64,000 bases of DNA from Hydrurus foetidus. Taxonomy: Eukaryota. This document shows, one piece after another, positions 1 to 59,418 of this stretch (its first letter is position 1; every line of letters begins with the position of its first letter). The stretch spans positions 1-64,000 of the forward strand of contig UYFQ01000829.1 of assembly GCA_900617105.1 (NCBI GenBank), written 5' to 3'. A program made the position numbers and the translations under genes. The notes under the pieces were generated by a model that was not told the origin of the DNA, made no database searches, and worked only from the letters and a program-made list of their open reading frames with translations.

Positions 1-729
1 CCGGACGTCAACCAAGCAAAGCTTGCGGCGAAAGATGGGCAGAAGTTAACAGGGTTAACTCTGCACAAAAATTTGGTTTTGCTGAGATGAAACTCAAGCA
101 AGTATCGGGAGATAAATCTTAGTCACTCGGATTGAGTTATCTCAATCCGAGTGACAAAAGTTTACGGCAACCAGACTTCGGAGACTTGCTCGCGATAGTA
201 AAAATTGCTCGCAAACGAGAATGTCGAATAGAATTCGAGATTCTCAAAGCAGGTAATCGGTATGGGATTGCTGGGATGAAACTCAAGCAACCACAAAATA
301 GTCAAGTATCGGGAGATTCCGGGTGACTAAGTTTACGGCGACCAGACTTCGGAGACTTACTCGCGATAGTAAGAATTGCTCGCAAACGAGAATGTCGAAT
401 AAAATTCGAGATTCTCCACGCAAGTAATCGGGTGAGTTAGGGCGGCAGGGTAGTATAGAGGATGGTAGCTTAGAGTAGGAGGATAGGGTCTAAAGAAGAG
501 AAACTAAAGGAAGTAGATCTACTGTGACCTTGGAAGGCAAAAGAGAAGGGAAGTCTAAAGGCTAAAAGGAGCTAATTAGTTAGGGATGCAACAGAAGGTA
601 CGCTAGTAACTTCTGCAAGGCAGCACAAACTAGCTAGTGACTGATAGTCGTGGCTGTGAACACGAAGGTACTAAGGTGGAAACAGCATCTAATCGGCTGA
701 ATGGGGTAGCAGACCCTGAGGGAGCCACA
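1..729 (-). mobile_element. Partial LTR retrotransposon (element 0): 5' LTR 523-729 on the minus strand plus leader running off the window start; probably Gypsy-type
   Basis: 207-bp TG...CA segment. On the minus strand it shares CTAGCTAG, AGAAGTTA and TAACTAA motifs with the 206-bp LTR at 1405-1610. It is followed by the palindrome GTAGATCTAC (513-522) and a pyrimidine-rich leader, and it interrupts a Harbinger transposase at 730. The other LTR and the coding region are outside the window. Confidence 0.65.
150..431. repeat. Imperfect direct repeat (about 110 bp, period about 171 bp) in the leader of element 0
   Basis: GTTTACGGC(A/G)ACCAGACTTCGGAGACTT(G/A)CTCGCGATAGTAA...GAATGTCGAAT...TTCGAGATTCTC occurs at about 160-245 and 331-416. 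Confidence 0.9.
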
Positions 730-730
730 A

Positions 731-939
731 TACCCATTTGAATTTCAGAGTGATATCGTGCATTGTATGAGGACGACTTCTATCTCGAAGGAGTGGTAGA
801 AAATAATATTCAACCTGATGATCAGGCAGACGACGAGAACAAGGAAAATTACAATGCTTTAAAGCTGTGGCGCAATGGCATAGCTGATGCACTTTGGGCA
901 AATTATTTGATTGTTATGGCTCAGCAGAATATTCTGTAA
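731..939 (+). pseudogene. PIF/Harbinger transposase C-terminal fragment (frameshifted, interrupted by the LTR at 729)
   Basis: Manual translation gives YPFEFQSDIVHC, then a frame change, then ...ALKLWRNGIADALWANYLIVMAQQNIL*. This matches the YPxxxQxxIV and RxxIAxxxWxxY end of PIF-like transposases. Confidence 0.7.
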
Positions 940-1404
940 TTAAAATAATCAATCAACATCGATTACCTATTTAGTTATGGTGCTGCTTAAGTATCGAATA
1001 TCATACAGTAAATACTTCCGAAGAACTATTTTAGATGGTGAAACCACGAAACGTACTCGTACGGTACCGTACCGTACGAAAAACCAAAAATTGAAAATTT
1101 CGGAGAAGATTCGATCGGTTACTTGAAAAATTACAGGGGGTCGTGTCGAGAAGATTCAAAGCGCAAAATGGCAATTACAATTCGAGCTTCGCAAGAATGA
1201 AGGCAGCTCTCTGCTCCGCATCGAAGGAATTGAACTGGTTGACCAGGGATTCCTGTTCAGAAAGCAGACAAATGAAGCTCATGATTTGAGCAGATGTCAG
1301 AGTGGAGGTATGCTCCGCCTTGAAGAGGGCGACGGCTGACGCAAAAGGCGTCGTCCTTTCAGAAGACTTTTTCTGTTGGGAGATCACCTCCTGCAGAAGA
1401 GAGG

Positions 1405-1610
1405 TGTGGTCGGACCGGCTATACCGGGCCTACGGGCCGTACCGGACCTAGTCCCGATCCATCCGATCCTACCGCCTACTGAACACATACATCTCTAGCG
1501 CAGCTGCTAGCTAGCTCTAGCCTACTCGTAGAAGTTATCCTAGCTTCTAGCTTAGTCTTGTAACTAACTAACACCTCCATTCTATCGACCTACCTTCTAT
1601 CCGGACTACA
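1405..1610 (+). repeat. Gypsy-1 5' LTR (206 bp)
   Basis: Direct repeat of 7093-7299; TGTGGTCGG...GGACTACA. Confidence 0.97.
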
Positions 1611-2937
1611 ATAGCGCTATTCGTCCACTCTTTCTTCTGCTACTTCTCATTCCGTCTACTCGTCCCAACCTGTAGATAAGACTTCTGAGCTTCCGCTCAA
1701 CGACTTTCGAGCCGTTTTCTTCTGCAGCCATTGGCTCAGAAGACCTAGTCTAAGTTAGAGAAAGTCAGATTAACTGCTTTCTTGGAATCCCCGTGCATTG
1801 GGCTCTTCCAAACTTGACATTTTGGTCGAAGTTGATTTATCCTTCCCAAAAGTCATTTTAGACTTGCTCCGCTGGTCGATCGAATCACAGATTCATCACC
1901 AGAGACATAAGATTAGTCTATAGACTTCTTTTCGTCGACGTTGAGCAACGTCTTTGGCCTTAACGGTCACTCAGATTTTCTACCACTCTAAATTTGGCTT
2001 TCACGCCATAGAACTTTTCAGTTCAAGAGTTGGGTAGAATTGCTTTATTCTTTGTTACTGACGTTACAGTACCCGTTCGTGAACGAGGCGAAGCTCTGGA
2101 AAAATTTTCCTGAGCAGGGCTAACCTCTTCACAGAGATACAGCCATTTTTCTTCGGAGAACTATCTCGAGCGAATAAACGATTTCTGCTCATCTTTTGAG
2201 AATTCGCATGCGGACATCATTGTCCCTTCGGATAATGAACTCTAGTATCCTATAGAATCGTTTACACCGAGTTCTGATCGAATTCAAGATCATCCTGCTG
2301 AGTTATGGACTTAGCGCGACATCGTCGTTCTCGACTGATTTTTATCAGGTTTTGACCCAGAAAAGGTCAGGACCTATAGAAAGATGCATAACAGTCATAT
2401 GAACACGATCTGAAGCTTCTAATCTCTCGAATCGCTCTCAGTAGAGAGATATCGACGATTAAAGAAAATATCCTCCAAGGATTACTGACCATCCTGAGTT
2501 CGGGGTTCGAGCCCCAGTAGGGGTGGGTCACCTTTTCGTACATTTGAAAATGTCGTATTTTTTTTTTAGTTTTCAATATGTGGGCACACATTTTGTAACA
2601 ATTTAACAACAGATTTCAAGTCTTAACAAGATTTTGAGACTGTAAACATTTCAAAAAAAAAAAATTAAGGAGTGTTCCTCCAGCTTTAAGCGAAACTTTT
2701 TCATTGTAATATTTCTTACATTGCAAATGTTCTGTTGCTTTGCAACATGAATCAAAAGATCGTTAGTATGAACCGCTCTTTTCGTTCACGCTATCACGTT
2801 TCTCACACAGCTCTATGCTGAGTAAAATTATTGCAATGCAATATTACGCATTGATTGAAAAAGTGATCGTAAGTGCAATCAACCTTTTGCCTGCACACAA
2901 CACCGGTTAGCCATCAGAGCGCCGCTGATCAATCTGT

Positions 2938-3192
2938 GTGGGGTACAGCGAATTCATCAAGGGTTTTATTTCATTTTACATGATAAAAATTCTTAACGTT
3001 ATACACCTGTGTTATCCTGCCCGTAAGGCCATAACGGTGTGTAGCGGTCGCGACGATCAATGTAAAACTTGCGATTTTACAATCCTTTTTCATTCTTACA
3101 ATGGTGAATGCAATTGCATCAGCCTGCCCATAAGGGTATATCGACAGATTAATTTGCCGAGACAACACTCAGCCGGGACAAAACCAAGGTAG
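2938..3192 (+). pseudogene. Degenerate aspartic protease remnant of Gypsy-1
   Basis: ITVCSGRDDQC aligns by eye with KVCSGLDNHC in the Gypsy-2 protease. The catalytic DTG is absent and the ORF is not joined to pol. Confidence 0.5.
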
Positions 3193-3301
3193 ATCCTTGC
3201 CCAGGACTGCGTGGCTGTCACTTTCGATAATGATGTCTTTAATCTGACTGATATTCATTTCGATTGCATTCGGCATTTCTCCTGAGCTTAGCGCTGAGAA
3301 T

Positions 3302-6300
3302 ATGAGAAAGAGCGATGCTCGCAGACGCGAATTCGAAAGAAAAGAAGCTTTGGATAAACTCGATCCGTTGTTTCAACACAAATATACGCGTCGTATGATA
3401 GCGTTGGGTACCGAACCTGATACAGCCGTAGTCGAGTCTTTAACACCTCACTACGACAAGCTGAAATATCCAGGCGGTAAACCACCCTCTAAAAAGAGAG
3501 AAACACACGGATCTTTCGAGTATCCAAACAAGAAGAGCATATTGCATGGTCAATCTTCTTCGAAGAGCAACGTCTCTTGTGTCCATACAATGTCGACATG
3601 TAACGATACTCAGATGGAGATCGAGGGAGTCGCGACCCAAGATCCCTGTGGTGTTGTAGGTTGTGAGCGACTGAATAGTGTCACTACTATTCTCGCAAAA
3701 CGTACGGGTGATACACCGCACCTAGGTGGCGACCAGATTCCCACCCCTACAAACACTTCTGAGGACTCTGATACCTTAGACTATGTCACTGAGCCTTTAT
3801 GGCCCAGTGGTGTCGCACTCTCAGTTGACGAGATTGACGATGGCAAGATAGATACGTTTGCCCCCTTCTTGGCGGAGAAACCTAGTCAAGATGACTTGCC
3901 CAAAGGGCCAGAGGATTTCCTCAAAGAGATTACCTTTGAAGGAGATGAAAGCTTTCAAAGGAAGCTCCGAGAGCTCTGTTCTGAATATTCAGACATCTTC
4001 AGTGATCAATTAGCTGAGAAACCAGCGTCACTTAAACCCTTTGAGATTAACATCCCACTTGAGTTGTGGGAAAAAGACGAAAACCGTACGCCGGTACGTC
4101 CCCAGTCATCAACGAAAGAGGTTGCTCTCAAAGAAAACCTTGACGAGATGCTTGCATCAGGGGTTATAGAGCGATCAGATGCCGCTTATTACAGTCATCC
4201 TGTAATAGTAACTAAGTCACCCGGTAAATTTCGAACCTGCATCGATTACCGGCCACTTAATAGGTGTCTTAAGCCGGCCTCATTCCCGTTACCAAATATC
4301 AAACACCTCTTTGAGAGGATCGGTAATAAAAAACCGGATATTTTTGGTGTGATGGATTTAACCGCTGGTTACCATCAAGCACCGTTACACCCCGCACACC
4401 GCATTTTTACGGCATTCATATGCTTTGCGGGGGTATTTCAGTTTACGAGACTGCCCTTTGGTCCGTGTCGAGCCCCCTCTTACTTTCAAGAGCAGATGGT
4501 AACGGCGGTCCTCTATGGCCTTATCTATCATTGTTGCGAGATGTATCTCGACGATTGTATAGTATATGGCAAGGGTGAAGCAGAGTTTCTTACTAACTTG
4601 AAAAAAGTTTTTGCAAGATTTAGACTTAAGGGTCTAAGACTCAAAGCTAAAAAATGCCGTTTCGGCCTTCCACGTATTGAATACGTTGGCAGAGTCGTTG
4701 ACAAAGATGGTCTATCCATGTCAAAAGAGAAGATAGAAACAGTTTTAAACTTTTCTATACCTAAAAATTTAACCTTACTCAGGTCATTTTTGGGTTTAGC
4801 GAACTATTTTCGACAGTTTGTACCAATGCATTCCACTTTGGTTAAGCCAATGCAGGATATGATTGATCACTCTGCTCCGAGACGTTCTGCTGTAGTTTGG
4901 ACTCAAAAGAGCACCAACTCATTCGTTGACACAAAGATTGCTATATCTCGTTGTCCATTAATGTACTTCATTGATGACAATAAGTTAGACATCCGCTTGT
5001 ATACAGACGCATCCGACTTTGGTATCGGTGGGGTCTTATTCCAAGTTGTTGGTGCCATTTGGCAACCAATTGCTTTCATTAGCAAATCGTTGACACCTAC
5101 ACAAATAAGGTGGTCTACGATACAAAAAGAGGCTTATGCCATCTTCTATTGTTGTACACAACTCGATTATCTAATCAGAGATCGTACGTTCACTATCCAT
5201 ACGGATCATTTGAACATAACATATATGAAACAAAATCCTACCTCAATGGTGGCGAGATGGTTCATTGCTATGCAAGAACTAGATTTTACCGTGGTATTCG
5301 TACCCGGTACTTCGAATGTTTTGGCAGACGCACTGTCAAGGCTTTGTCCTAATCTGACAGAAATTGCTCTGCCATTACGAACAGAAGAATTGGAATTACT
5401 TCCTACTTCATCATCGTCTTTCACTGTATCAGCTCTGACGGTCATAGAACCAGCTTCAGACGATCAGTTAGAATACATTCAAATGTGCCACAATGCAATT
5501 GTCGGTCACAACGGCGTAGACCGTACCCTTACTCGGTTGTTTAGTTTACAACAAGTATGGAAACACATGAAACAACATGTACGTACGTTCATACAGAACT
5601 GTCCGTGTTGTCAAAAGTTGAGTGCAAAAGATCCTAAGATCAATGCGTCTCATTTTGCAACTTCAAATTATGCTATCTTCGATACGCTAAATGTTGACTA
5701 TATTGGTCCATTTCCTGACAAAGGTTATATCCTAGTCATCATCGATACATTCACACGATGGACAGAATTGTTCTGGTGTGCAGACGCAGATGCTAAATCA
5801 GCAGCTGACTGTTTGCTTGCGCATTTTGGTCGATTTGGATCACCAAATATGATTAGATCTGATCGAGGATCACATTTCGCAAATGAATTGATCAAAGAAT
5901 TCTTAGATCTTTGTGGAACACCACATAATCTCACCCTTGCTTACTCGAAACAAGAGAATGCAATTGTTGAAAGAGTCAACAAAGAGGTGAATAGACACTT
6001 AAGAGGTTTAGTTTTTGATAAACAAACCCTTGAGGGATATGCTAAGTCAATCCCTTTCGTGCAACGTATCATTAACAGTTCAGTTAATAGACGCACAGGT
6101 GTCTGCCCCGCTCATTTATTGTTCGGGAACAAACTTGATTTGAATCGTGGTATTCTCACTCCACACTTAAGTGTCGGAACACATTCAAGATCAACGTACA
6201 TATCAGATTTGATAAGTGTACAAGACGAAGTACTTGAAACTGCGGTTCAAACTTTGTTAAAAGCGGATGCTAAAAACGCCGCGTCAGCTGAATCAGCGAC

Positions 6301-6742
6301 TGTGTTCCCCGTGGGGTCATATGTCTTATGCCGATACACTGATCGACCTCCAACTCGATTACATACTAAGTGGCATGGCCCTTACTGTATTGTCTCCTTT
6401 AAGGGGTCCGAGTATGTTCTCGCAAATCTTGTAAACCACAAGACACGAAGTGTTCACGTCAAGAATTTGAAAATATTCAATTATGACCCAGAGGTAGATA
6501 TACCTGCTGACACTGCTCGTCGCGATTACATGGAGTTCGTGGTTGAGAAAGTTCTGGGTCACGCTGGTGACACCAAGAAACCGACTACAATGTCGTTCCA
6601 TGTTAAATGGCTCAACTACGATGACTCTCATAATACATGGGAGCCGTGGAAATCACTACGGCTCTGTGAAGCACTCCATGATTATTTACGGGATAACAAA
6701 ATGAAACATTTCATTCCCAAAAACATTGAGACATCAGCCTAA
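3302..6742 (+). CDS. pol: Gypsy pol: reverse transcriptase, RNase H, integrase, chromodomain (1146 aa, uninterrupted)
   Basis: RT motifs RTCIDYR, DLTAGYHQ, LPFG, YLDD. RNase H TDASDFGIG, KEAYA. Integrase HHCC, DYIGP, RSDRG, ENAIVER. GPY module. Chromodomain VEKVLGH...VKWLNY...NTWEP. Confidence 0.97.
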   Translation: MRKSDARRREFERKEALDKLDPLFQHKYTRRMIALGTEPDTAVVESLTPHYDKLKYPGGKPPSKKRETHGSFEYPNKKSILHGQSSSKSNVSCVHTMSTCNDTQMEIEGVATQDPCGVVGCERLNSVTTILAKRTGDTPHLGGDQIPTPTNTSEDSDTLDYVTEPLWPSGVALSVDEIDDGKIDTFAPFLAEKPSQDDLPKGPEDFLKEITFEGDESFQRKLRELCSEYSDIFSDQLAEKPASLKPFEINIPLELWEKDENRTPVRPQSSTKEVALKENLDEMLASGVIERSDAAYYSHPVIVTKSPGKFRTCIDYRPLNRCLKPASFPLPNIKHLFERIGNKKPDIFGVMDLTAGYHQAPLHPAHRIFTAFICFAGVFQFTRLPFGPCRAPSYFQEQMVTAVLYGLIYHCCEMYLDDCIVYGKGEAEFLTNLKKVFARFRLKGLRLKAKKCRFGLPRIEYVGRVVDKDGLSMSKEKIETVLNFSIPKNLTLLRSFLGLANYFRQFVPMHSTLVKPMQDMIDHSAPRRSAVVWTQKSTNSFVDTKIAISRCPLMYFIDDNKLDIRLYTDASDFGIGGVLFQVVGAIWQPIAFISKSLTPTQIRWSTIQKEAYAIFYCCTQLDYLIRDRTFTIHTDHLNITYMKQNPTSMVARWFIAMQELDFTVVFVPGTSNVLADALSRLCPNLTEIALPLRTEELELLPTSSSSFTVSALTVIEPASDDQLEYIQMCHNAIVGHNGVDRTLTRLFSLQQVWKHMKQHVRTFIQNCPCCQKLSAKDPKINASHFATSNYAIFDTLNVDYIGPFPDKGYILVIIDTFTRWTELFWCADADAKSAADCLLAHFGRFGSPNMIRSDRGSHFANELIKEFLDLCGTPHNLTLAYSKQENAIVERVNKEVNRHLRGLVFDKQTLEGYAKSIPFVQRIINSSVNRRTGVCPAHLLFGNKLDLNRGILTPHLSVGTHSRSTYISDLISVQDEVLETAVQTLLKADAKNAASAESATVFPVGSYVLCRYTDRPPTRLHTKWHGPYCIVSFKGSEYVLANLVNHKTRSVHVKNLKIFNYDPEVDIPADTARRDYMEFVVEKVLGHAGDTKKPTTMSFHVKWLNYDDSHNTWEPWKSLRLCEALHDYLRDNKMKHFIPKNIETSA

Positions 6743-7092
6743 GTTGCTGATCTCGAACGTATTATCTTTTGAAGATTTTTCCTAATTTTTCCCTCTATGA
6801 GGTTTTTATGGTTTTAGTCAGTAAAAATCTGACATAATTACGTATCGAGGTCTCGTGCGCAAGTACATGGTACTAGGCACCCACCTTATCACCTTGACCG
6901 ACCTACCACCAAGTCTATTTGTATAGATTTTTATTTTATATTATACATTTCAATGTATTATGAGATTTACAGATTTGTAATCTTTTTCTTTATTCTCCCT
7001 TTAGTTAGTTTTAGTTGTATTAGATTTTTGTACAAAACGTGGTGGTCGCGTCATAGGTTCTTTTTCTTCAGAAAAAAGATAAGTGGGGGTGA

Positions 7093-7299
7093 TGTGGTCG
7101 GACCGGCTATACCGGGCCTACGGGCCGTACCGGACCTAGTCCCGATCCATCCGATCCTACCGCCTACTGTACACATACATCTCTAGCGCAGCTGCTAGCT
7201 AGCTCTAGCCTACTCGTAGAAGTTATCCTAGCTTCTAGCTTAGAGCCTGTAACTAACTAACACCTCCATTCTATCGACCTACCTTCTATCCGAACTACA
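7093..7299 (+). repeat. Gypsy-1 3' LTR (207 bp)
   Basis: Direct repeat of 1405-1610. Confidence 0.97.
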
Positions 7300-8344
7300 G
7301 AGGCGAAGACGTTTACGGGCTTTTCCTTCGGCGTCTTCGGAGTCCTCACATAGGGTCTGATTATTCGCCCAACACTCTGACTCTTGACCACCGGTGACTT
7401 AAAACTATCTTTCACTTTTGCTTTGGATAGGACCTCGATTCCGGCAGAGTCGACAACCACGACGTCGCTGCAGCTGGTCTCCGGCGAAGCGAGAATCGCC
7501 TCCTCGGAGTCCTCCGTCGCAGGATCCACGCTGTGATCCTCCCAGGAATTCAAGGCAGCTGCGACAGGAGCTTTCATAATTGGACCTCCGGAGGCTTTAG
7601 CATAGTTTCCTGTAGCCGTGTCGACTGAAATTTAGAGTTTAAGATTTCCTTTGTTAATTTCGATAATTAAAAATTATTTTTCCCTTTATAAAATCAACGC
7701 TTCACTTACGGGAAAAAAGGATGCACAGTTCCTTGTAAAAAGGGAGAGGTGCCCTCGAAAACGCTTTGGGATGAGTTGCAAAGTAGGTGTTCAGCGCTTC
7801 TGGCGCGGCTGTCACCATACCCTTTGCATCCATTCCAAACCCGCTATTATTCGCAAACTGGTCGAATATCGTCCAGTTCTTTTTAAGCGACTCCACTTGA
7901 GAAGAAAGGATTTTCTTGTCGTAGGGCAGTCCTGTTTTCAGGGTGAAATCTGCCACTACTAACTTCCAAGCAGATTTTTTATTTTTGATGTTAGAATACC
8001 TACCATCAGAGTGCTCCAGAAGGCATTCGATGAGAACCTTGCGGTTCACATCGAGCCACTTCACGGAGCCCTCAACTTTAATCTGCACGCTGGACGACTT
8101 ATCAAGAACTGTGCTGAAGAGACGATCGTTACTGTCGATAAGAAAAGTTGCATCGCAGAAACTTTCAGATATCGCACTTCACGAATCAGGTGAATCGTTT
8201 CCAGCACAACTTTCTGTGAATTCTCGTGCCTCAACTTTTTTACCGAACAGCTTTTTCAGTAAAAAATTGAAGGCTCGAGAAACTACAGATTTTCTAAAAA
8301 ACTACAGTTTTTTGGTGGAATTTTCGTTTACCGAACGCACCCAT

Positions 8345-8703
8345 TGTCGGAGTCCACGCTTTAGTTCCACTGAATGGGCAACTAAATCCTTCCTGGGTCC
8401 TTCTGCAACTTCAACCTGGCGTCTGATCACTTTCCCGGGCTCAAGGCGAAAGTGGGTTTAGTTTGGAGTTTAAAGTAATTAACAATGCAACGTAGCTTAC
8501 ATCGTTCATGGAGACAGTCGAGAAATTCGATCTGTCCCGCACAGTCAAACATGGTGTACTTTCATTTTTAATGTTCCTGGATGTGGAAAAAGAACTTGGA
8601 CCGGTGGAGTAGCGACCTCCACGTGGCACACGACGTACGAAACGTCATTAAATGTACATACGTAATAACTTATACGGTTACTTATCACACAGTTATTCCG
8701 ACA
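8345..8703 (-). repeat. Copia-1 3' LTR (359 bp)
   Basis: Near-identical to 20099-20464 apart from a 7-bp indel and a few substitutions. Confidence 0.97.
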
Positions 8704-9786
8704 CACCCCTATGGCGTGAGTCGTCGGGTTGATGTATGTGGATATGAAAACGCAGTAGTTCAAAAATACTCCGTTTACATGGAGTTGCACAGGTGGTGTA
8801 TCATAGCATGATTTTGTAGGGTAGGGAAGTAGGGTAATGGTGAGGTTGGTGTTAGTTGTGACGTTAGATAATTTATTACACACAGGGTAATGTTAGTATC
8901 ATAAGGTCTGACTGATCCTCATGAAAGTAGAATTAAAAACGCGCTAAAAGATTTTTTAGTAACACACATAAGAATGCAATGAAGGCAATTTCCTAACTGG
9001 GTAAATCGCTGCACTCCGCACTTCTTTCTTGGGTCTGGTCCGCGCTCCTCGCTCGTCGTGTCTCTGTCAGGGTTTTCTTGGGGTCTTGAGTGTTTGGGTC
9101 TTGGTTTCGATTCTCACTTGACGGGGCAGTAGGAAAATGACGGAGGGGTAGGAGGAACAGATGGAGTCTTGGGGTCTTTGTCATGATGCGCACTGATGGG
9201 GTAGTAGGAATGGATGGAGGGGGGCAGCAGGAATGACGGAGTCTTGGGGTCTTCTGAATCAGTCTTCGGCTGAAGCGGACAGCGGTGGTTTAGTAGGGTA
9301 TGATGGAGGGGGGCAGTAGGGAGTGATGTAGTCTTGGTGTCTTCGTCGCTGGCATCAAGTCTTCTTCCCAGATGGGTATCGGAAGTGTGGGTTGGTCTTT
9401 TTCCGCGTGGGAGTAGGTGGTGGGTCCACGTGATCCTCAGTCTTGCAGCCTTCTGCATAGGTAATTGAGAGGGGGGGGATGTTGAGTAGCTGCTTCCTCA
9501 GCTTCCTAAATAGCTCCCCCTGCAATGGCTTGGTTAGGATATCGGCGATCATGTCAGTAGTAGGTAGGTAGACGATGTCGATATCGCCTGTGATAATCCT
9601 GTCGTGCAGGAAAAAGTACCGTATGTCGACGTGACGTGTACGTTCACTATTAGAACGACCGTTACGCATTAACTGTATCGTGGACTGGTTGTCCTGGTAC
9701 ACTAGTGCGGGAGGCTGTGGGTGTCCTTGGCTCTCCAGGAAATTCCTGGTCCATAGCACTTGGTTGGCGGCGTCGCTGAGTGCGAC

Positions 9787-10048
9787 TGTAGCCTTATTGC
9801 ATTCCTAAGGGGATACAATGTGTCTAGGTTAACTAGGTACAATAGGTATATTACGCCCAGATTCCACTTTTAGGTCTTAGTTCCACATATGACGTGAATG
9901 CACTTTAGCGTACACATCACTTGTAGATACTCAACTGTAAAATACTAACACAAGTTTACTCCACCTACCCTTTCTTCCCTTGCCCACCGCTTGCATCAAC
10001 CGACCACCACTTTTAGCTCCAACGTCCTAGGCCCCGCCCAAGACCACA
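9787..10048 (+). repeat. Gypsy-2 5' LTR
   Basis: Direct repeat of 15273-15534. Confidence 0.97.
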
Positions 10049-10084
10049 ATATCGATATTTGGTCGATACCAAAGTTTTTTTTTT

Positions 10085-11908
10085 TTGCGAGAAATCCATT
10101 TCTCCACGCCATCAATTTCAAATCCCATCACTCATATCCGACAGTCGAAGAAAATGGCTCTCCGACGCCAGGACAAGAGGATTAGCACCATCAACTCCCT
10201 TCGCCGACAACGACAGCCCCCTAGAGCTGTCGCCGTCGCCTTCCGACAACGTTACGAGGAGCACCACAATCGTGGAGGAGATAGCATCGAGTCTCCTGGG
10301 CCACCTGCGGCTCAGGACCCCGCCGGCGACCTGTCTGCACCGATTCCTCAGCGGAATTCGGAGCCTGCGGTCTCGTCTGTTATTGATGCTCCTGTTTTAT
10401 CTGCTTTATCCGCTCTAACGTTATCACCAGTTTCGACTGCGACACCAGCTTCGGCTGAGATACCAGCTTCGGCTGCGACACCAGATTCGTCTGCGACACC
10501 AGCTTCGGCTGAGATTCCTCGTTCGATGGCACCACCTCAGCACTATGTGCAAACGGGTGAGAGAGCTCCTAAGTTGAGCGCCGTGCCCTCTCGTCAGGAA
10601 GTACTACGGGTAATGGAGGTCCTCCTTTCAAATGGAACTCCATTTAAACCAGTTGATGTAATCCATGTTTCCAACCATCAATCGTTTACAACGCTTCTCA
10701 AGCGTAAGTTTGCAACTGATCCCGATCGTCGCGACTCCTGTAACAATTGGAAACATTGGTCGAATCAATTGTTCTGTAGAGAACTCAATCTCACAGTTCC
10801 TACATCAGCTGTCAATCGAACTGACAAGCTGAGTTTCATTGAAACTGTCTCTCAGGTCGCACTTCAATTCGACCTGAAGGATAAATCAGTGGAAGACAAG
10901 ACAGATCAGCTTTTAGCTGATATTGTTGATGGATTCCCTGATGCAACACCCGCTCTCCAACTTCAGGCAACCAAAATTCTAATCGATAAGTTGCCTGTCG
11001 AACCTATCAATTGGAGAGCAGTGTTACAGCGTAGTCTTAACAATACAACGCCAAGACTCATTACAATCGAAGACTTTCGATTCGTATGGCTTGCGCAGCT
11101 TGCTAAGCTACGAGAATCAATTGATGCCTTACGGTTCATTGATGTCTCTCCTTTGTATGGTGATCACTCTCGCCAAATCAAAGCTCCTCCTCGTTCCTCT
11201 CAGGACAAAATCAAAAAACGTCCACGAGAGAGCGAACAATCTGTGCAATCAGACAAGTCTGACAAATTCGAAAGACCTCTGTGCACAGGTTGTGGGAGAC
11301 TCGGCCATTTCGTCGCCACGTGTTTCTACACTACGTCTCCGTACTATAACAGTACAGACGCACCCTATATCAACTCTGAGGGTCATAAGCAGTTGTTGAA
11401 AGTCGATTCAAAGGCTAAGTTTATTCCAACTTTACCTAAGACATCGACCTCTTCTTCATCGTCTTCCTCTTCTTCTTCCTCTTCGTCAAAACCTGCTACT
11501 TCAACAGCAGACTCGACAAACGCTGCGAAGAAACACAAAGGTGAGCAACTATGCAACCTAAATTCATCATCTATTCTTTCCGATGATCCAGAACTTATTC
11601 CTTTCTTCGTATCTCCCCTCTCACAGGAGGTTATGCTGGAAAAAAGTAATAGAGTCTTTACTCTCCTGGACACCGGCTCTTTTGCTGGCAACTTTATACA
11701 TCGCCGCATTATAACTAATCATAATTTCACACAATTCGTTTCTAACTCTTCAAAGAAATTGTGTAAAGTTTGTAGTGGATTAGATAATCATTGTTATGAT
11801 ATTTCTGACACTATAGACTTAATTCTTTTTTATTTTTGCCCTGATTTAAATAATTATTATACTTTTCAAATCACGGCTTATGTTTTAAACGAATCAAAAT
11901 GGATTTAA
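10085..11908 (+). CDS. gag: Gypsy-2 gag-protease (likely ATG at about 10154)
   Basis: CCHC knuckle CTGCGRLGHFVATC, Ser-rich linker, protease LLDTGS. Confidence 0.85.
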   Translation: MREIHFSTPSISNPITHIRQSKKMALRRQDKRISTINSLRRQRQPPRAVAVAFRQRYEEHHNRGGDSIESPGPPAAQDPAGDLSAPIPQRNSEPAVSSVIDAPVLSALSALTLSPVSTATPASAEIPASAATPDSSATPASAEIPRSMAPPQHYVQTGERAPKLSAVPSRQEVLRVMEVLLSNGTPFKPVDVIHVSNHQSFTTLLKRKFATDPDRRDSCNNWKHWSNQLFCRELNLTVPTSAVNRTDKLSFIETVSQVALQFDLKDKSVEDKTDQLLADIVDGFPDATPALQLQATKILIDKLPVEPINWRAVLQRSLNNTTPRLITIEDFRFVWLAQLAKLRESIDALRFIDVSPLYGDHSRQIKAPPRSSQDKIKKRPRESEQSVQSDKSDKFERPLCTGCGRLGHFVATCFYTTSPYYNSTDAPYINSEGHKQLLKVDSKAKFIPTLPKTSTSSSSSSSSSSSSSKPATSTADSTNAAKKHKGEQLCNLNSSSILSDDPELIPFFVSPLSQEVMLEKSNRVFTLLDTGSFAGNFIHRRIITNHNFTQFVSNSSKKLCKVCSGLDNHCYDISDTIDLILFYFCPDLNNYYTFQITAYVLNESKWI

Positions 11909-11923
11909 TAGCAAGCAATTCGA

Positions 11924-14900
11924 ATGGGACGAAAAGCAATTCGCGAATTGAATTTATTTTCACGTTTCCCCGATCAAATATCTGCCAATGCTTCATCAAG
12001 CACTACCTCATTAGCGGAAGTTTTATCTTCTGAACAAGTGGATATAACGTGTGGCTGTCAGCCTAAGGAGAAGTTGCAACCCTCTGATGGCTCCCCAAAG
12101 GTCGATCCTTTAACCCAAAAGGTGAAACCGGCAGTAACCCAAATACATGTTATTCTAGCTTCACTAATACAAGAGTCTGAAAGACTTTTTGAGGCTGTGC
12201 CCCCTGATGAGGACGAAATCGACGACTCGATCAAGGACTCGTTTTCACCTTGGATAGATGAATTTCCTGATACTGACCCACTCTCGCTAATAAACTTAGC
12301 AGGTGATGAAGATCAGAAAAATAAACTTCGGTTACTAGTACACGAATTCAAGGATATATTTAGCAGTGAACTTTCGGCCACTCCTGCTGATATTCCACCC
12401 TTTGACTTTCATGTCAATGACGACCAATGGAGAGTTCCTAAAAATAGACAACCTCCATGGGCTAAATCAACAGTTGATCAAGCTGACATTCTCAGTCAAA
12501 TTAAAAAACTTGAAAAACAAAATATTGTTGAAAAATCGAACGCGGCTTATTATAGCCAAGTTTTACTAGTTCCTAAATCTGATGGAACTAAGCGCATGTG
12601 TATTGATTTTCGGAATCTCAACAATTGTACCGAAGATAAATCACATCCTATTCCACACATCGGTGAGATGTTGCGTAGAATAGGTGCACATAAAGCAAAA
12701 GTGTTTGCTGTACTTGACCTCACTCAAGGGTACCATCAAGCACCACTTACACTCGCTGCACGTGCTTATACTGCATTCATACTTTTCTGCGGAGTATATC
12801 AATTCACTCGTTTACCCTTTGGGCCTAAACAAGCACCCTCCTATTTCCAACAGATTATGACAACTGTTGTGTTAGCAGGGCTGATATACTCTATATGCGA
12901 AATGTACATAGATGATTGCAATGTTTTCGGTAAAGACATTGACGAACTTATTACTAGACTTCGTCTTGTGTTTGATCGATTTAGAAAACACAAAATATTC
13001 CTTAAACCGAATAAGTGTTATCTAGGCTATGCCGAAATAGATTATGTTGGCAAAGTTCTATCTGCAGATGGACTTAGAATGTCACAAGAAAAAATACGGA
13101 CTGTCTTAGATTTTCCTAAACCAGTACTATCTAAACAACTCAAAAGTTTTTTAGGATTGGTTAATTATTTTCATGACTTTGTTAGAAACGCTTCTACTGT
13201 TGTATACCCGTTACATCAGTTGCTTCTTAACTATAATAAGTATAAGAAAATAACTTGGACAATAGAAGCTCTCAGAGCATTCAATTTGATCAAATCTGAG
13301 ATTTCAAAATGCACGACTATGCACTTTTTAAGTGACACCGATCCGATATACTTGCACACTGATGCATCGGACTACGGTGTAGGTGCCTATCTTTTCCAGT
13401 TAGTTGACGGTCAAGAAACGCCCATAGCATTTGTCAGTAAATCACTTAACAAAGCTCAGCTTCGTTGGGCTGTTATACAAAAAGAAGCATATGCTATCTT
13501 TTATTCGTGCACGTATTTAAAATCGCTATTACGTGATCGTACGTTCACATTGCGTACAGATCATCGTAACTTGTTATACATCAAGGATAATTCAAATCCA
13601 ATGATTGTTCGGTGGTTTATGGCCTTATCCGAATATTCATTTAAAATTGAATATATACCTGGTGCTAACAATGATATAGCTGATTCGATGTCTCGACTCT
13701 GTCGCAATAACATGGTTGATTTCCCTCAGGAATATACTCCTGATGCAATCATGTCTGCTAATACTATTGAAAAATTCAAACTAACACGTGATCAGTACAA
13801 TACAATCAGTAAAGTACACAATTCACAAGTTGGGCATTTTGGCCTTGAGCGCACTTTAAAGCGTCTCATTGACAAAAGATAGTATGGCAATATATGCGTC
13901 AGCACGTCAGGTGGTTCATAGATCACTGTTCGTGTTGTCAGAAAATGAGTATGTTAAAGATACCAATACATGCTCATGGTTTCTCAACTTCTACTTACAC
14001 ACCTATGGAATGCCTTAACATAGACTTCATAGGACCGTTCCCAGACGGCGGGTACGTACTCGTAATTATCGATACGTTCACAAGATGGGTTGAACTGTTT
14101 CATACAGAAGATGCTACAGCACTTTCAACAGCTAAATGCCTCTTGCAACACTTCGGTCGTTTCGGCGCACCTCTCCAACTCCGTTCTGATAATGGGCCAC
14201 ACTTCATTTCCGAAGTTATTAGAGAGTTTCTAACTCTTATTGGCACTCAACATTGTCTTACTTTAGCATATTCTAAAGAAGAAAATGCTATTGTTGAGCG
14301 CATGAATAAAGAAGTTAATAGACATCTTCGTGCATTAACATTCGATAATGTCACACTAGAAGATTATAAAACGTCACTTCCATTTGTGCAACGAATTTTA
14401 AATTCTAATCACAGTGATCGTTTAAAAATATCATCTTCTCAACTTCTTTTCGGAAATGTACTAAAACTCGATAGAGGTATCTTTTACCTCCTGCTGAGCG
14501 AAATGTTACTGATGACAAACCTTTGTCAAAGCGTATGAGCAATCTACTCAAAACGCAAGACAGTCTTCTTAAAGCTTCTGCTAAAGAACTTCTTCGCACA
14601 GATTTGCTTCATCAAAGTCAGTCTCAAGTTTTTCAGCATGTAGATTATCCAAAAGACTCTTATGTCTTAGTGCACTATCGCGATGGATCCCTCCTTCACG
14701 TCTTCACACGCATTGGAGAGGCCCATTAAAAGTCGTTAGTGGCGAAAATTCGCGTTACACACTTTATGATTTAGTCACTCAGAAAACTTCAGAGTTTCAT
14801 GTTTCTGCAATGAAACCTTTTCTATTTGACCCTTCAATCACAAATCCGTTGGATGTTGCACGACGTGATCACATGGAATACTTTGTTGAAGACATTCTTG

Positions 14901-15073
14901 ATCATCGTGGCAAACACCAACGTACCCACATAGAGTTTTTAGTCAAATGGTTAAATTACCCTTCAGACAAAAACACTTGGGAACCTTATTCAAGTCTTCG
15001 TGATGTTGATAAACTTCATGATTATTTACGTCATAATAACATGACTAAATTAATCAATAAGCAACATAGATGA
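11924..15073 (+). pseudogene. pol: Gypsy-2 pol (RT-RH-IN-chromodomain) broken by frameshifts near 11900, 13880, 14480 and 14690
   Basis: YIDD, TDASDYGVG, DFIGP, RSDNG and VKWLNY...NTWEP are spread over ORFs 11924-13882, 13894-14538, 14523-14729 and 14810-15073. Confidence 0.93.
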
Positions 15074-15272
15074 CTTAATATATTTGAAACTTTATCCATG
15101 AGGATTCTCTCCTATTTTTTTACCTACCGGTCTTTTTTGGAGAGTTTAGTCAGTAAAAGTCTGACATCATCGTTTCATCTATATCTCATATATATGTTTT
15201 ACATATCTTTTCATTTTTTTCATTTTTTTTGTATATCATATCAAAGATCTTCAAAAAAGGAAGAAGGGGTAG

Positions 15273-15534
15273 TGTAGCCTTGTTGCATTCCTAAGGGGAT
15301 ACAATGTGTCTAGGTTAACTAGGTACAATAGGTATATTACGCCCAGATTCCACTTTTAGGTCTTAGTTCCACATATGACGTGAATGCACTTTAGCGTACA
15401 CATCACTTGTAGATACTCAACTGTAAAATACTAACACAAGTTTACTCCACCTACCCTTTCTTCCCTTGCCCACCGCTTGCATCAACCGACCACCACTTTT
15501 AGCTCCAACGTCCTAGGCCCCGCCCAAGACCACA
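15273..15534 (+). repeat. Gypsy-2 3' LTR
   Basis: Direct repeat of 9787-10048. Confidence 0.97.
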
Positions 15535-18500
15535 CGACTAGCTCAGCCTCTGTGCTGGACTTGGTCATCAGGCGCTGTGTCCCGCTCTTGGCATAAATTG
15601 CCCCCTTCCCCAGTGTGACCACGCTACCTGTGTGGCTTTTCATGTCGGGGTGTATGGCAAAGGATGCGTCGATATATGCAGTAACATGGATAGGTTCATG
15701 TACTTCAAATGTAATACCCATGTGCTGGGTACCCCGTATGTACTGGATCGTACGGGACAGCTTGTCGTAGTCATCCCTTTGGGGCTTTAGCACCCGCTTG
15801 GTGAGGAATGCTACAGCCGTGAGAATGTCCGGCCTAGTCCTCTTACTCAGGTACAGTAGCTTGGCTGTAATGGAGTGGAAACGCTCACGCAAGTCATCAG
15901 GTAATAATGGGTTAGATTCATCAGGTATAGCAAACAGGTTGGGTCGTGCAGGAGTGGTAGCCGTGCCCGGCATGTCCGTGCACCCCTCAATGAGATCTTT
16001 TACAAACCCTTCCATCGTCATCTTGACTACTCCTTCGTTATTGAAGTCGAAGGTCATACCTATGTAATTTAATACTTTGCCGCGGTGTTTGGTTAGACCG
16101 GGGTATATAGTTTCAATCTGCTTTATGACCTCATCCACGCAGGATTCGGTTGAAGCAGTAATAATCATGTCGTCAACATGAATCACTAATGAGGTTTGTG
16201 TGTTATCAGTTTCAGTTCTATTGAATACGCAGATGTCGTATTCGTTTGCAGTATAATTGAGTTTATTCAAATCGCTGGATAGTTTGTCATACCATAGCTT
16301 AGCAGATTCTACACATCCATGTAAAGCTTTCTTTAGTTTCACAATACATGTTCCATTCTTATTTATGTATTTGTTATATGTTGCGTCTATTTGTATTAGT
16401 GCAGCAGTCAGTTGTTTATTTAATCGCATGTATACAACATGGTCACCGGTCAGCGGCATATCGCTATTCAGAAATGCACCAGGGAAATCAACAGTGGCAA
16501 TAGCACGGTTCTGTTTAGCAGCAATCGCAGTTAGTATAAATACGCTGGATGTGCTAGCAGTAGGGGATGCACCGTTGTTATAAACATCTCTATCTTGTAG
16601 GTGCCCACCGGCTACTAATCTAGATTTCAGTTTTTCAAACATACCATCAGCCGTGTACTTTTCTTTTAGAAACATGCTACTCGGTATGATGGTGCGTTTT
16701 TGTTTAGGGGTAAGTGATTCATAAGTTACACCTTCCTATACATCCTTGTCGCACATTTGTTTTAATTCGGATGTAATGGAATCAACAGCTAGCACCCCTA
16801 ACTTATTAATTCCTTCACTAACAGTCATCTTATATAAGGATGTGTTTTTATAAAACATGCTACCAACATATTTCCTATTCCAATTACCTAGTTGGTGGTT
16901 TCTACCACTTCTACGCAACAAAGGTGAAACACTGTCTGGTAAATCATATTCTGTTTCTATTACTGAAGGTGGTGAGAATACTTCGGGTTGCGCAGTTACA
17001 TCGTCAAAGTCATTTTCATCATCACTTATTCCAAATATATCATCAATTAGTGCTTGATCGTATCTGGGTGAACGCTCATGTGTTTCGTATTGATTCGCAT
17101 CATCATGTGTGTGGTTATCGTAATATAGTTCGTCATTAGTATGAGTGGTGTCATTCGTATATAGTGTGTCATCTACATACTCATCTAATGTCGGTGGGTT
17201 GTTTTCATCGTACATATATTGTTGTGGCTCAGGGTATGTGTCATTGTCAACGTGTTGGTTGTCTTCAGTGATTTCATCGGTTTCTTCTGCGTCAGCAGAT
17301 TCGTCAATGGTATCATACTCAATGTCACCAATGTATTCAGGGTCATCGTCAACATCATCATCATCATCGAATACGGTGTGGCTATTCTCGAATACAGGTT
17401 GTTTAACATTGGCAGTTTTTCTATTCGCTGCCAGACTGTTTAAGTGTAACACAACTTCATTAGGCATGGGTAGTACGGTTGCTTTTGTACGTTTAACAAT
17501 TTGTTCATTTGCTAACAGCATGTAGTACCATGAACCTTCTAGATTGCCGGAGCTCATAAGTGCTATGGCCCCGGCTGTTCTTGGTTTGGTAGAGTTGTCA
17601 ATAACATCATTGTGCACTTGGACATAATCACCAAAACCGTGCTTAATCTCTTTATCTACATCAATCTTTCTACCGCTGAGTTTCTCTCGTGGGCTGATGT
17701 GATCTATAGAGTTACGTGTGGGAGCTAATACAATTCTACTGACTGCATACTTAACTAACCACACTTCAAGTTTCTCGCTTAATTCAAATGGCAGCGTGTT
17801 AATAACGGATCTGACTCTCTCTTTGATATGTCTAATCTTACGCTCCACTACGGCTACGGCTTCCCCGGCTCCGGTAACATCTAAAATGATACCTCTGAGA
17901 CTGACTTTGTTGTGGAACCATTCGGTGTTTATGGCGCCTTCACCGTCTACTCTTATCATCTTAATCTTAAAGTGATACTTAGTCATGCCTGCTATGGCTG
18001 TCTTTAGACTGTTCCATAGTGTCTTGTGATCTCTCTTGGCTAGCTTGCTAACAAACAGGAATTCAATAGGCTGTACAACTGATACTAGGTAAGGTATTTG
18101 GTTGACAAACATTATATCAATGTACATGATCTGTTCTGTCTTATACTCTGTGCCTATAAGAGGTAACTTCTCTTCTAGCTTAGCTTGGTGGCTAGTAGTT
18201 TTACCCTTTAGGGATCCAATGTCTGGTCCCCATATGTCTACTGCTCGGTGTACGTCTCGCGCAGTCACTTTACTGTTAGTCAAATTCCCTTGGGATATCA
18301 ACTTGATAGTTTGTGCTGCGCTAGCGTAACCTAGCCTACGCTGATAGTCTCTAGCTAGCGAAGCGTCTCTGACCTCTCTAACTGTATACTTCTTCTTTTT
18401 CTCTTCTACGGTTGTAACTAATAGTGGCATGCATTTAGTCACCATAGTGTCAAGGTTGCACTGGTATATATTCATAGATTCATCTCGTGAGAATCTGTAG

Positions 18501-18960
18501 AAATAATTACCAGTGACATCCTGTACTATGTAACAGTCATGGTCATGTAAGTACATAACATCAGTACAGTCACGTACAGCATTACCGAAAGACAGTATGT
18601 TACCAGCACAGTCAGGGCTATAATATACATTGCCAAACGCTGATTCGCCACGCTCCTTGACTATTAGCGGTTTTCCTTTCGGATTCACCCCGCTAACAAT
18701 CATGGGAGTAGTGGCAGATTTTACATTGTATAACAGGGATGAGTCGTTGAATACCGACTCACCAGCACAAGTATCAAGCAGTATGTGTTTTGTTTTAATT
18801 GCATTGTATATATTACAAGTGTTTGCACTAAATACAATACGGTCGCACGATTCAACCCCGCTAGTGGAGTCAGCCAAACGTGGACCGGTGGGGGTAAGTG
18901 CATGTACGGGTGTGTGTGTGTGTGGGGGTGCGTATGTGGGTGAGGAATAATGTAATGTGT

Positions 18961-20073
18961 TTAGTTTACCGATTTCGAGTGTCCACTGGCTGCTGATGCA
19001 GCCGATTGGCTCTCCTGGGCAGTGCACTCATATGCATAGTGTCCCGGTTCCTTACATGAATTACAGATCCCGGGTCGGGTGCCGTATCCCGGACGTTCAC
19101 CCTTCCCTTTTCCCGCATCCCCAGTTGACTTTCCCTTCTCTCTACCTACAGATTTTTCTCCTCCAGCTGTTTTCACTGCAAAGATATTAGATTGATTAGG
19201 TGGGCCCGTTCCGGCCGGTTTTCTGGGAGTCACCTTAGCCATCTCTAAGTACGCTTCATCTAGCGAATCTGGCCAGTCCTTGATCCCATGCTCGTAGTAT
19301 TCTACGAATTGTTTGTACCCCGAGTTGAGTCCCTTCATGAACTTCATGCCCGTGAGAAGATTCTCGTGTATGGTCATGGCCGGTGTATACACCGGCTCGA
19401 TCCCTAGGACCCGTTTGGTGTCATCGTATCCAGTCTTCAGGGCTTTGAAGCGCTGGTAGTAGTACTTAAGGACATCGTTGGGCTCCATTCTTACGGTCTC
19501 ATAGGCCATCCTTACCCGTAGTAGGTTCTCGTCTGCTCCCAGCTTCGGGTCGGACAGGTGGGTGAGTATGATGGCTCTCATGAATAACAGCGGGTTCTCC
19601 GCTGTGATCGCGGCCAGGCCCGGTTCAGTTTCGCGGATAGTCGCCTTAGACGTCTCGCTTATCTGACCTAGCATCAGGCCGAAGACCTGCTTCTTGTCGG
19701 TTTCTAGCTCCGTCATTTTCTTGTCGTAGAGGTCCAGTGATTTCTTCCATCTTGCAATTTGCATGAAGTTCGCGTCCTCCGCTATATCAGCAGGAGCCAC
19801 TAGGACGGGATACTCTCCCGGTATGCCTTCGTTCCCAAATATGTCACAAATGTCTGATTTATAGTTGGTCCGCGTATACTCTCTAAATTTTCTCATCCAT
19901 GCGCTTACGCTACCATGGTTCATTTCCTTCCCCAAATCCAGGAACGCGCCTATGGCCGCTACCGTTCCTGTTCGGGGTGGAGGCTTGAAGCCTCCACGGC
20001 CGGCATTGCCTCTGCCGCCGTTGGCAGGGCCGCCCTTGCCAGAAGGTTTCTTGTCTGCAGCTTTTCCTTTCAT
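18961..20073 (-). CDS. gag: Copia-1 gag
   Basis: RGG-rich N-terminus and CCHC knuckle CNSCKEPGHYAYEC; highly similar to gag at 59809-60929. Confidence 0.9.
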   Translation of the reverse strand: MKGKAADKKPSGKGGPANGGRGNAGRGGFKPPPRTGTVAAIGAFLDLGKEMNHGSVSAWMRKFREYTRTNYKSDICDIFGNEGIPGEYPVLVAPADIAEDANFMQIARWKKSLDLYDKKMTELETDKKQVFGLMLGQISETSKATIRETEPGLAAITAENPLLFMRAIILTHLSDPKLGADENLLRVRMAYETVRMEPNDVLKYYYQRFKALKTGYDDTKRVLGIEPVYTPAMTIHENLLTGMKFMKGLNSGYKQFVEYYEHGIKDWPDSLDEAYLEMAKVTPRKPAGTGPPNQSNIFAVKTAGGEKSVGREKGKSTGDAGKGKGERPGYGTRPGICNSCKEPGHYAYECTAQESQSAASAASGHSKSVN

Positions 20074-20098
20074 AGGATGAAAGTGCAATTGTTAATTA

Positions 20099-20464
20099 TG
20101 TCGGAGTCCACGCTTTAGTTCCACTGAATGGGCAACTAAATCCTTCCTGGGTCTGCTCTCCTTCTGCAACTTCAACCTGGCGTCTGATCACTTTCCCGGG
20201 CTCAAGGCGAAAGTGGGTTTGGTTTGGAGTTTAAAGTAATTAACAATGCAACGTAGCTTACATCGTTCATGGAGACAGTCGAGAAATTCGATCTGTCCCG
20301 CACAGTCAAACATGGTGTACTTTCATTTTTAATGTTCCTGGATGTGGAAAAAGAACTTGGACCAGTGGAGTAGCGACCTCCACGTGGCACACGACGTACG
20401 AAACGTCATTAAATGTACATACGTAATAACTTATACGGTTACTTATCACACAGTTATTCCGACA
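20099..20464 (-). repeat. Copia-1 5' LTR (366 bp)
   Basis: Repeat of 8345-8703; related to 59419-59783. Confidence 0.97.
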
Positions 20465-20690
20465 CCCATTACGTTTACGGTATTGTCGCAACCCAGCGAA
20501 GACTTCAACAAATTTCGGTTGTTTACTTCGTGATCATTCCGCCGCGTGTAGTCACTGTGTATCCATTCCCAATGACTCTTCATATTGCTCAAGAGATGTC
20601 TTATCATATCTCTTCAACATGCCACTTCGAGGTCGGTGTGCATTCGTCGTTTTTTCACTCTGCTCGTTGGAAGACTGAGCTGGGGGAGCC

Positions 20691-36900: not shown

Positions 36901-37067
36901 GCGATTACTCGGTTGATGTGTGTATGTGATAGACAGATGGGAGATTGAAAATCGGTGACGTGTGCGAAATTGTAACCGTACGAAAGACCAAGACCATACT
37001 ACCGCTTCACGAATTGCATTTTCATACGCACATACAGACACGCACACATGCACACAGATACGCAGAC

Positions 37068-37128
<61 letters not shown>

Positions 37129-45508: not shown

Positions 45509-45824
45509 GGCGGCTGCGGATGGCTTCCAGATAAAGTCCTTTTCAACGTATGACTTTGATGTGGGCTGAGATGCGAATGCAGGTATATCGGCAGAGTCTT
45601 CTAATATTGCGAGCTGCGATGCTGAGTGTAACGTACAGGGGTGCCAGCTTGTGTACTAGCTGTCTGTCTACCCGGATACTAGACTCGGACCCCGGACCCA
45701 ACCAACGCTCGTTGAAATAAATTCTAACATGGACTCAACCGTTTGGACTAGGTATACGTACATAGTCATTGTGTGTCGCAAATATTTGGGTAGTATGAAT
45801 AGTCCCCTCGAAAGGTGATCAATG

Positions 45825-53953: not shown

Positions 53954-54233
53954 TTGATTTATAACTTGCATTGTTACAATTGGTTTTTGTATTGTGTACT
54001 CCACTACGATCGAGAGGTACAAAAATCAGGATACAAAAAAAGGAAAAATAAATATGCTTCGAAAGTATGAGAATATAAGTTGAAACTTGTTAATATAATT
54101 ATGTGAATAGATTTAACGATAAATAAAGTTTAAAATTTTGTATGTTTATTTTGTACTCCACTACAATCGAACGGATACAAAATAAGAATGAATAAATACA
54201 ATACATGATAGACAAGGACTTAAAAACATTAAC

Positions 54234-59304: not shown

Positions 59305-59418
59305 CTAAAAAAAGGTTGAATGTTGTTTGGCAACAGAAGTTTCGTTGGGGCCGACAAAATTTGGTGGAATATGTGGCATTTTTCCAAAATTAAAAAAGTT
59401 TTTGGACCCTGGACCCTG

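Follow-up and report, generated by a model that had tools for sequence, protein, structure and literature searches.

The window analysed here is a 64,000 nt stretch of Hydrurus foetidus DNA (assembly GCA_900617105.1, contig UYFQ01000829.1, positions 1-64,000). It holds three Gypsy-type long terminal repeat (LTR) retrotransposons, designated element 0, Gypsy-1 and Gypsy-2, and the features of these and of neighboring genes are collected in Table 1. They belong to a group of Gypsy LTR retrotransposons with a chromodomain, in which a perfect palindrome of 8-14 nt adjoins the 5′ LTR at the position of the primer site. Gypsy-1 and Gypsy-2 display the domain order reverse transcriptase (RT)-RNase H-integrase with a C-terminal chromodomain, as in Ty3/Gypsy chromoviruses, together with TG...CA LTRs, a polypurine tract and a target duplication. 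Their closest solved relative is Ty3. The RNase H domain has DAS, E and DH motifs. The RT-RNase H sequences of the two elements are 47.7% identical over 440 residues.

Three different 10-mers, GTAGATCTAC in element 0, ATAGCGCTAT in Gypsy-1 and ATATCGATAT in Gypsy-2, adjoin the respective 5′ LTRs. The initial annotation described each as a perfect palindrome in this position, and both symmetry and coordinates were found to be correct upon re-examination. The true palindrome is 12 nt long, since in all three elements the last A of the LTR pairs with a T immediately 3′ of the 10-mer. No palindrome is present 3′ of the 3′ LTRs of Gypsy-1 and Gypsy-2, where flanking sequence is found instead. It should be noted that a single perfect 10-nt palindrome is common in the window (81 observed versus 67.5 expected, or 0.00105 per site); the probability that palindromes occupy all three prespecified sites by chance is nevertheless about 1e-9. 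Beyond the palindromes, the adjacent sequences GGAC/GTCC of Gypsy-1 can pair across an internal loop, and GACCA/TGGTC of Gypsy-2 can pair across a one-base bulge.

The 4-bp target duplications reported for Gypsy-1 (GAGG) and Gypsy-2 (CGAC) agree with empty-site joints in public reads. These joints skip 5899 and 5752 bases, respectively, i.e., the element plus 4, and are found in three of four public runs. Thus the ends of both elements and their 4-bp duplications are fixed, and alleles without the insertions exist.

Table 1. Features of the window, with the three Gypsy elements first and host-side genes last
Feature	Position	Strand	Remarks
Element 0 5′ LTR	523..729	-	207 bp, TGTGG...TCACA; loose ends diverse at 523 and 729
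Element 0 palindrome GTAGATCTAC	513..522	-	primer-site position; 12 nt including 512 and 523
Element 0 leader	1..512	-	truncated at window edge; internal repeat 146-260/318-431; summed read depth high
Gypsy-1 target duplication GAGG	1401..1404, right copy 7300-7303	+	empty-site joint skipping 5899
Gypsy-1 5′ LTR	1405..1610	+	97.6% identity with 7093-7299
Gypsy-1 palindrome ATAGCGCTAT	1611..1620	+	12 nt including 1610 and 1621
Gypsy-1 pol frame	3248..6742	+	RT, RNase H, integrase, chromodomain (Pfam)
Gypsy-1 3′ untranslated region two-stem motif	6771..6835 (approximate)	+	clade-conserved
Gypsy-1 polypurine tract	7070..7092	+	
Gypsy-1 3′ LTR	7093..7299	+	then flank
Gypsy-2 target duplication CGAC	9783..9786, right copy 15535-15538	+	empty-site joint skipping 5752
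Gypsy-2 5′ LTR	9787..10048	+	99.6% identity with 15273-15534
Gypsy-2 palindrome ATATCGATAT	10049..10058	+	12 nt including 10048 and 10059
Gypsy-2 coding region, four frames	10031..15073	+	probable gag, RT-RNase H, integrase, chromodomain
Gypsy-2 3′ untranslated region two-stem motif	15099..15167 (approximate)	+	clade-conserved
Gypsy-2 polypurine tract	15253..15272	+	
Gypsy-2 3′ LTR	15273..15534	+	then flank
VPS13-like exons	32377-45655	-	domain match
DDE_1 transposase	48167-49450	-	domain match
Rpb2 domain-7, weak match	51588-52478	-	domain match
Na/H exchanger	56947-59304	-	domain match

The probable gag of Gypsy-2 is a stop-to-stop frame (10031-11908) without a Pfam match, separated from the pol frame by an in-frame stop (TAA TAG, 11906-11911). 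In Gypsy-1 gag is mostly unrecognizable: the upstream match, at 2944-3156, is limited to residues 543-614 of the closest full relative, and positions 1621-2943 show no recognizable gag, yet this region is high-copy in the reads. Low read depth near 2140-2670 suggests an insertion or a private segment in Gypsy-1, and this copy may be non-autonomous. One contig spans the Gypsy-1 junction, but it stems from a run only guessed to be RNA and is not evidence of transcription.

The orientation of element 0 required separate treatment. The window does not include its coding part, and the leader (1-512) has no match to gag, so orientation cannot be read from gag. Contigs of four public runs were aligned on positions 470-790. 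At 523 and 729 the contigs split into unrelated flanks, which delimits an LTR of 207 bp. In one public run, 15 contigs share a conserved pyrimidine stretch behind position 735 (agreement 0.93); a second public run has two contigs in which the LTR end is followed by CTACCCC. Read on the minus strand, this stretch is a polypurine tract that ends like that of Gypsy-2. This places the internal 3′ end on the right, and the LTR that precedes 513-522 is thus a 5′ LTR on the minus strand. The possibility that element 0 is a plus-strand 3′ LTR, which would have left two cases only, is countered by this conserved tract. No variants at or above 1% are listed at 512-523 in the four runs, a weak point in itself, as only about 24 of 260 positions vary.

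The Gypsy-1 pol sequence was used as a query for relatives, and 560 were obtained, nearly all of them metagenomic proteins. An alignment of 44 relatives served to fetch 103 loci (numbered with the prefix L), in part by a metagenome scan that covered 38 of 64 parts, with the best 80 of 165 considered. The elements of the host occur in biofilm, sediment and freshwater runs. Direct detection of LTR pairs in the 103 loci mostly failed; L097 alone gave both ends cleanly, and there, with both LTR ends aligned, a palindrome is present 3′ of the 5′ copy and absent 3′ of the 3′ copy. As LTRs are mostly collapsed or truncated in short-read contigs, the start of an LTR was recognized by a polypurine tract followed by TGT, and the LTR was taken as 5′-type if a gag match lay downstream. 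All 26 loci defined in this way display CA or TA followed by a perfect palindrome of 10-14 nt, at 150-420 nt from the LTR start (in L071, L072 and L078 the match consists of an 8-mer plus a CA/TG pair). Shuffled sequences (100 dinucleotide shuffles each) gave an expectation of 1.58 of 26 for the same rule. The 26 loci correspond to about 21 distinct families once near-duplicates are merged. Thus the relatives do carry palindromes, and the absence of palindromes from other family members, which had been named as a refuting observation, was not what was found.

Some rows were dropped before this count but after the output had been seen: L051:683, L087:635, L087:1186, L093:571 and L081:77, as well as L100:107, which has no gag match. 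The first five are purine-rich and have a gag match but no palindrome, and are not copies of the LTR start of their locus. With all gag-positive rows kept, 29 of 34 have a palindrome, and with L081 restored the count is 26 of 27 loci. Five loci (L019, L068, L084, L085 and L100) have LTR-like starts with neither gag nor palindrome in the at least 300 nt that follow; most of these are tentatively read as 3′ LTRs with flank.

Several further observations concern these loci. The LTR apparently ends in TA and not CA in L012, L052, L056-L058, L062, L089, L093 and L098. L051, L055, L065 and L071 show tandem LTR-internal-LTR-internal arrangements, which may be true arrays or assembly collapse, and the two related LTRs of L055 bear different palindromes. 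Loci L002-L043 are eukaryotic retrotransposon contigs inside bacterial genome bins, most likely as a result of binning contamination.

A comparison was made of 42 junctions (23 of the blind set, 16 others and the three of the window), all chosen as palindrome-bearing. They display 24 different palindromes, with lengths of 10 nt (30 junctions), 12 nt (nine), 8 nt (two) and 14 nt (one). The constant length noted initially thus holds for the window trio of 10-mers but not for the clade. The last A of the LTR faces a T in 38 of the 42. In most of the thirty 10-mers, A-T, T-A and A-T are found at the three outer positions (RTA...TAY), whereas each of the four Watson-Crick forms occurs at the inner pairs, 4 and 5. 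A quick RT tree was built from 39 rows (element 0, which lacks pol, and L055a and L033 were left out). Over its 27 10-mer rows, pairs 4 and 5 underwent at least 11 and at least 14 changes, respectively, and the changes were always two-sided. Two-sided changes are also present between close sisters in clusters of 70-80% identity (L049/L050/L060, L054/L055b/L051, L087/L101 and L047/L048). What is conserved is symmetry, not sequence, as proposed from the three window elements, and compensatory change affects every pair and extends through the center of the palindrome. No second copy of the palindrome was found elsewhere in the elements, with the exception of tandem or circular repeats and one 8-mer.

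Pairing potential extends into the U5 end of the LTR and the leader. Own flanks pair at -7.7 kcal/mol versus -6.2 kcal/mol for swapped flanks, and the own partner is better in 31 of 42 junctions (0 of 10000 permutations, in a test that ignores relatedness). In six junctions the predicted monomer hairpins have energies of -3 to -6 kcal/mol. Predicted dimer energies are favorable, as they are for any palindrome, and are uninformative on function. A hairpin leaves the center unpaired, yet the center stays complementary, which argues for a second molecule or a two-fold symmetric site.

Known primer types were looked for at the same junctions. Three primer types of LTR elements, including half-tRNAs, are listed in the available text of PMC6317226. 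None of the 42 junctions has TGG in the first 8 bases after the LTR, in agreement with the earlier statement that no site starts with TGG. A Tf1-type complement in the LTR of at least 10 nt, starting 0-5 nt after the LTR (criterion from the available part of PMC6317226), is likewise found in none of the 42, the longest being 9 nt; in three junctions only the 200 nt preceding the site were used in place of the LTR. The initial annotation had found no full complement in the cognate LTR, and this can be extended to all junctions. A second arm of the GalEa type is missing as well, with no near-copies (one mismatch allowed) within 60 nt in any of the 42, and a polypyrimidine stretch of the Skipper type is absent, the first 10 bases being at most 60% pyrimidine. 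No tRNA genes were found in the window.

The window also contains two related Copia elements, 77% identical, at 8345-20465 (minus strand) and 59417-62810 (plus strand). The former has LTRs at 8345-8704 and 20099-20465 and a 5-bp duplication, CCCAT, and Gypsy-2 is nested inside it. Both Copia elements have the same non-symmetric 10-mer, TAATTAACAA, 3′ of the 5′ LTR. Judged by eye, this 10-mer could pair with the Asn (GUU) anticodon loop, as in half-tRNA priming.

A second conserved motif is found in the 3′ untranslated region, about 75-210 nt after pol. It consists of GATT, a stem closed before TTTTA, a covarying hairpin and an A. The hairpin pairs are GTCAG/CTGAC, GTGAG/CTCAC, GTGG/CCAC and GTCCG/CGGAC, and the motif is also present in L009, L018, L019, L033, L037, L038, L063, L064, L070, L080, L083, L085 and L086. 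A loose hairpin rule is matched by 36 of 65 segments, some by chance. Within a set of 15 hand-picked sequences, the arms of the first stem pair better in their own combination (0 of 3000 permutations). An Rfam search of window positions 1-21000 gave one chance-level match and none for this motif. A packaging, export or translation signal is possible. In the remainder of the window, short repeats with partial inversion are situated around 52900-55500.

With respect to function, we tentatively propose, at slightly under an even chance, that these elements may prime reverse transcription without a tRNA, from the partner RNA of a packaged dimer. Two genomic RNAs would pair antiparallel through the palindrome, and the duplex would extend into U5 and leader by the A-T pair and the bulged arm. 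One strand would then receive a cut at the palindrome's 3′ edge or right beside it, and the RNase H of the element is the probable nuclease, as in Tf1. RNase H in Tf1 is said, in the title of a reference, to cleave an RNA duplex. The resulting 3′-OH would lie opposite the last base of the U5 of the partner, so that minus-strand DNA would begin at the LTR end without a spacer. Since the primer must anneal next to U5, it must sit on the palindrome. The new site would have one strand from the primer RNA and the other from the template RNA, and a one-sided mutation would yield two symmetric mismatches whose repair restores the palindrome or produces a fully compensated one. The origin of the two strands from different RNAs would thus explain the fast two-sided turnover. 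By this scheme the second genomic RNA would itself be the primer in a fourth mode of starting synthesis, with dimerization and priming as one act at one site and with the replication cycle keeping the palindrome while its letters drift; we regard this as possible, with prospects just below even. Two of its elements have parallels: packaging of Ty1 RNA in dimeric form has been described (PMC3592414, in the available text), and duplexes flank the Tf1 primer duplex (PMC10085805, likewise). The initial annotation had suggested pairing between two RNAs, an idea that the conserved central pairs favor over a hairpin; its count of this as a third priming mode has to be changed. With half-tRNAs already the third type (PMC6317226, in the text available), it would be a fourth primer type, or a trans form of self-priming.

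A number of points weigh against priming by the partner RNA. The data are all contigs, with no RNA end, cut site or primer among them, and symmetry alone does not distinguish priming from dimerization or from a protein site that is itself symmetric. The scheme predicts one-sided and mirror variants as intermediates, but the element 0 family shows none at or above 1%. It also requires a long 5′ fragment (R-U5-palindrome) as primer, and plus-strand copying into the U5 of this fragment must be stopped; a cut in both RNAs would deprive second-strand transfer of its homology. As to the census, the original rule (CA only, at least 10 nt) gives 17 of 26, and TA ends were admitted after the misses had been inspected. 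In addition, a cis stem would account for the flank pairing just as well, 11 of the 42 junctions lack such pairing, and the flanks of element 0 pair no better than swapped partners (9-nt window).

Of the other explanations, a role of the palindrome as a dimer initiation signal only, i.e., a kissing loop that the U5/leader stem closes, with some other primer in use, is unlikely but has structural parallels. A palindrome in a stem-closed loop is the architecture of the retroviral dimer initiation site (DIS), the PAL motifs of Ty1 are candidates for such a signal (PMC3592414, in the available text), and the central covariation fits. Against this, the palindrome is exactly at the primer position without a spacer, and no other primer site is seen: TGG is missing from 42 of 42 junctions and the LTR complement is below 10 nt in all of them. 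Moreover the retroviral DIS comes on top of a primer-binding site (PMC5445492, in the text available). The symmetry could instead serve a dimeric protein, be it Gag, RT, integrase or a factor of the host, on double-stranded RNA or cDNA, or be a by-product of copying, with priming by something other than a base-paired RNA primer. The perfect center and the weak outer preference RTA...TAY would suit a two-fold site, and copying that rewrites one half would also yield partial U5/leader arms. However a length that varies from 8 to 14 nt with free inner letters is unlike most protein sites, and the three primer types in the available text of PMC6317226 include no protein- or DNA-primed LTR retrotransposon. 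We consider an explanation of this kind distinctly unlikely.

Fold-back in cis, in which the palindrome would form a hairpin within one RNA, with a cut 3′ of the palindrome and priming on the U5 of the same molecule, appears improbable. It agrees with the monomer hairpins predicted in six junctions and with the covariation of the flanks, but the four central bases are in the loop in four of the six folds, and more bases are in the other two. These loop bases have stayed complementary through the at least 11 and at least 14 changes noted above, whereas unconstrained centers would be fully complementary in fewer than one in ten elements. Finally, the sites may pair with fragments of host tRNAs or with different RNAs of the host, the symmetry being incidental. 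Copia lineages with half-tRNA priming have been described (PMC6317226 and PMC10886601, in their available texts). Against this explanation, a host partner would be expected to go with a fixed, non-symmetric 10-mer such as that of the Copia pair in the window, whereas the three different Gypsy sites of the window and the 24 of the clade are all symmetric, and many are nearly pure A/T. As each of the 24 would need its own host RNA, fixed host RNAs are not easily matched to them, and we hold this explanation to be highly improbable.

Among known systems, the nearest likeness is to the fungal GalEa elements of the Ty1/copia group, in which a palindrome after the 5′ LTR, the Conserved Hairpin Site, was described with no mechanism given in the available text (Donnart et al. 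2017, PMC5445492). In both cases a tRNA site and an LTR complement are missing, and the palindrome abuts the 5′ LTR, includes its last A and is the proposed primer site. Counting the A, the GalEa palindrome has 10 nt; its sequence is almost invariant, with two versions in 85% of families, and it is followed 12-41 nt away by a second inverse arm (same source), an arm not seen in any of the 42 junctions here. In addition, GalEa is a Copia element, whereas the present elements are Gypsy by domain order and the RVT_1 domain, with 24 palindrome sequences of 8-14 nt. Bivalve TRIMs (miniature retrotransposons with terminal repeats) have been compared with the GalEa site (PMC6934838, in the text available).

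Tf1, sushi and Tcn1 are, like the present elements, chromodomain Gypsy elements with a site next to the LTR; they prime without a tRNA, from their own RNA, as is proposed here, and have flanking U5/leader duplexes of a kind that may also form here (PMC6317226, PMC4600332 and PMC10085805, in their available texts). Their primer (same sources) is the transcript 5′ end, acting in cis on a non-palindromic site, whereas here no such complement exceeds 9 nt. As to the flanking duplexes, here the own flanks pair better in 31 of 42 junctions and the central self-primer duplex is absent. The fission-yeast members of the Tf1 group, in the text available, make 5-bp target duplications, in contrast to the 4-bp duplications of Gypsy-1 and Gypsy-2. 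Skipper of dictyostelids is also a chromodomain Gypsy element without TGG or LTR complement, and its priming is left unexplained in the available text of PMC5006619. However Skipper has a polypyrimidine stretch (PMC5006619), whereas the present sites are at most 60% pyrimidine and palindromic. The retroviral DIS and the Ty1 PAL motifs are likewise palindromes and let two genomic RNAs pair, as the present sites may, but are 6-nt motifs away from, and additional to, the tRNA site (PMC3592414, in the available text), whereas the present palindromes occupy the primer position.

Hairpin priming has been discussed as ancestral (PMC3601003, in the text available), and the available text of Kojima 2024 (PMC10886601) has no passage on palindromes. 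No full-text report of a palindromic primer site in Gypsy was found, in a search that left Repbase, GyDB, most subscription papers and supplements outside its scope. The earlier remark that no description was known is upheld for Gypsy, but a palindrome at this position has been described for GalEa Copia (PMC5445492, in its available text). The palindromic site of these Gypsy elements is a clade-wide feature with unusually clean covariation, and it has a partial precedent in Copia.

In the texts available, priming without a tRNA site or a Tf1-type self-primer is unexplained for Skipper and fungal GalEa. The two-sided change through the center of the present palindromes, which is missing in the Skipper and GalEa cases, narrows the mechanism to pairing of two molecules or a two-fold site. 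If priming from the partner RNA is true, a primer class would be added to the three listed, and the RNA dimer would acquire a direct role in priming. Annotation tools based on tRNA sites would then miss or misjudge a widespread and recently active group of elements. If GalEa works alike, partner-RNA priming would have arisen more than once, in Gypsy and in Copia.

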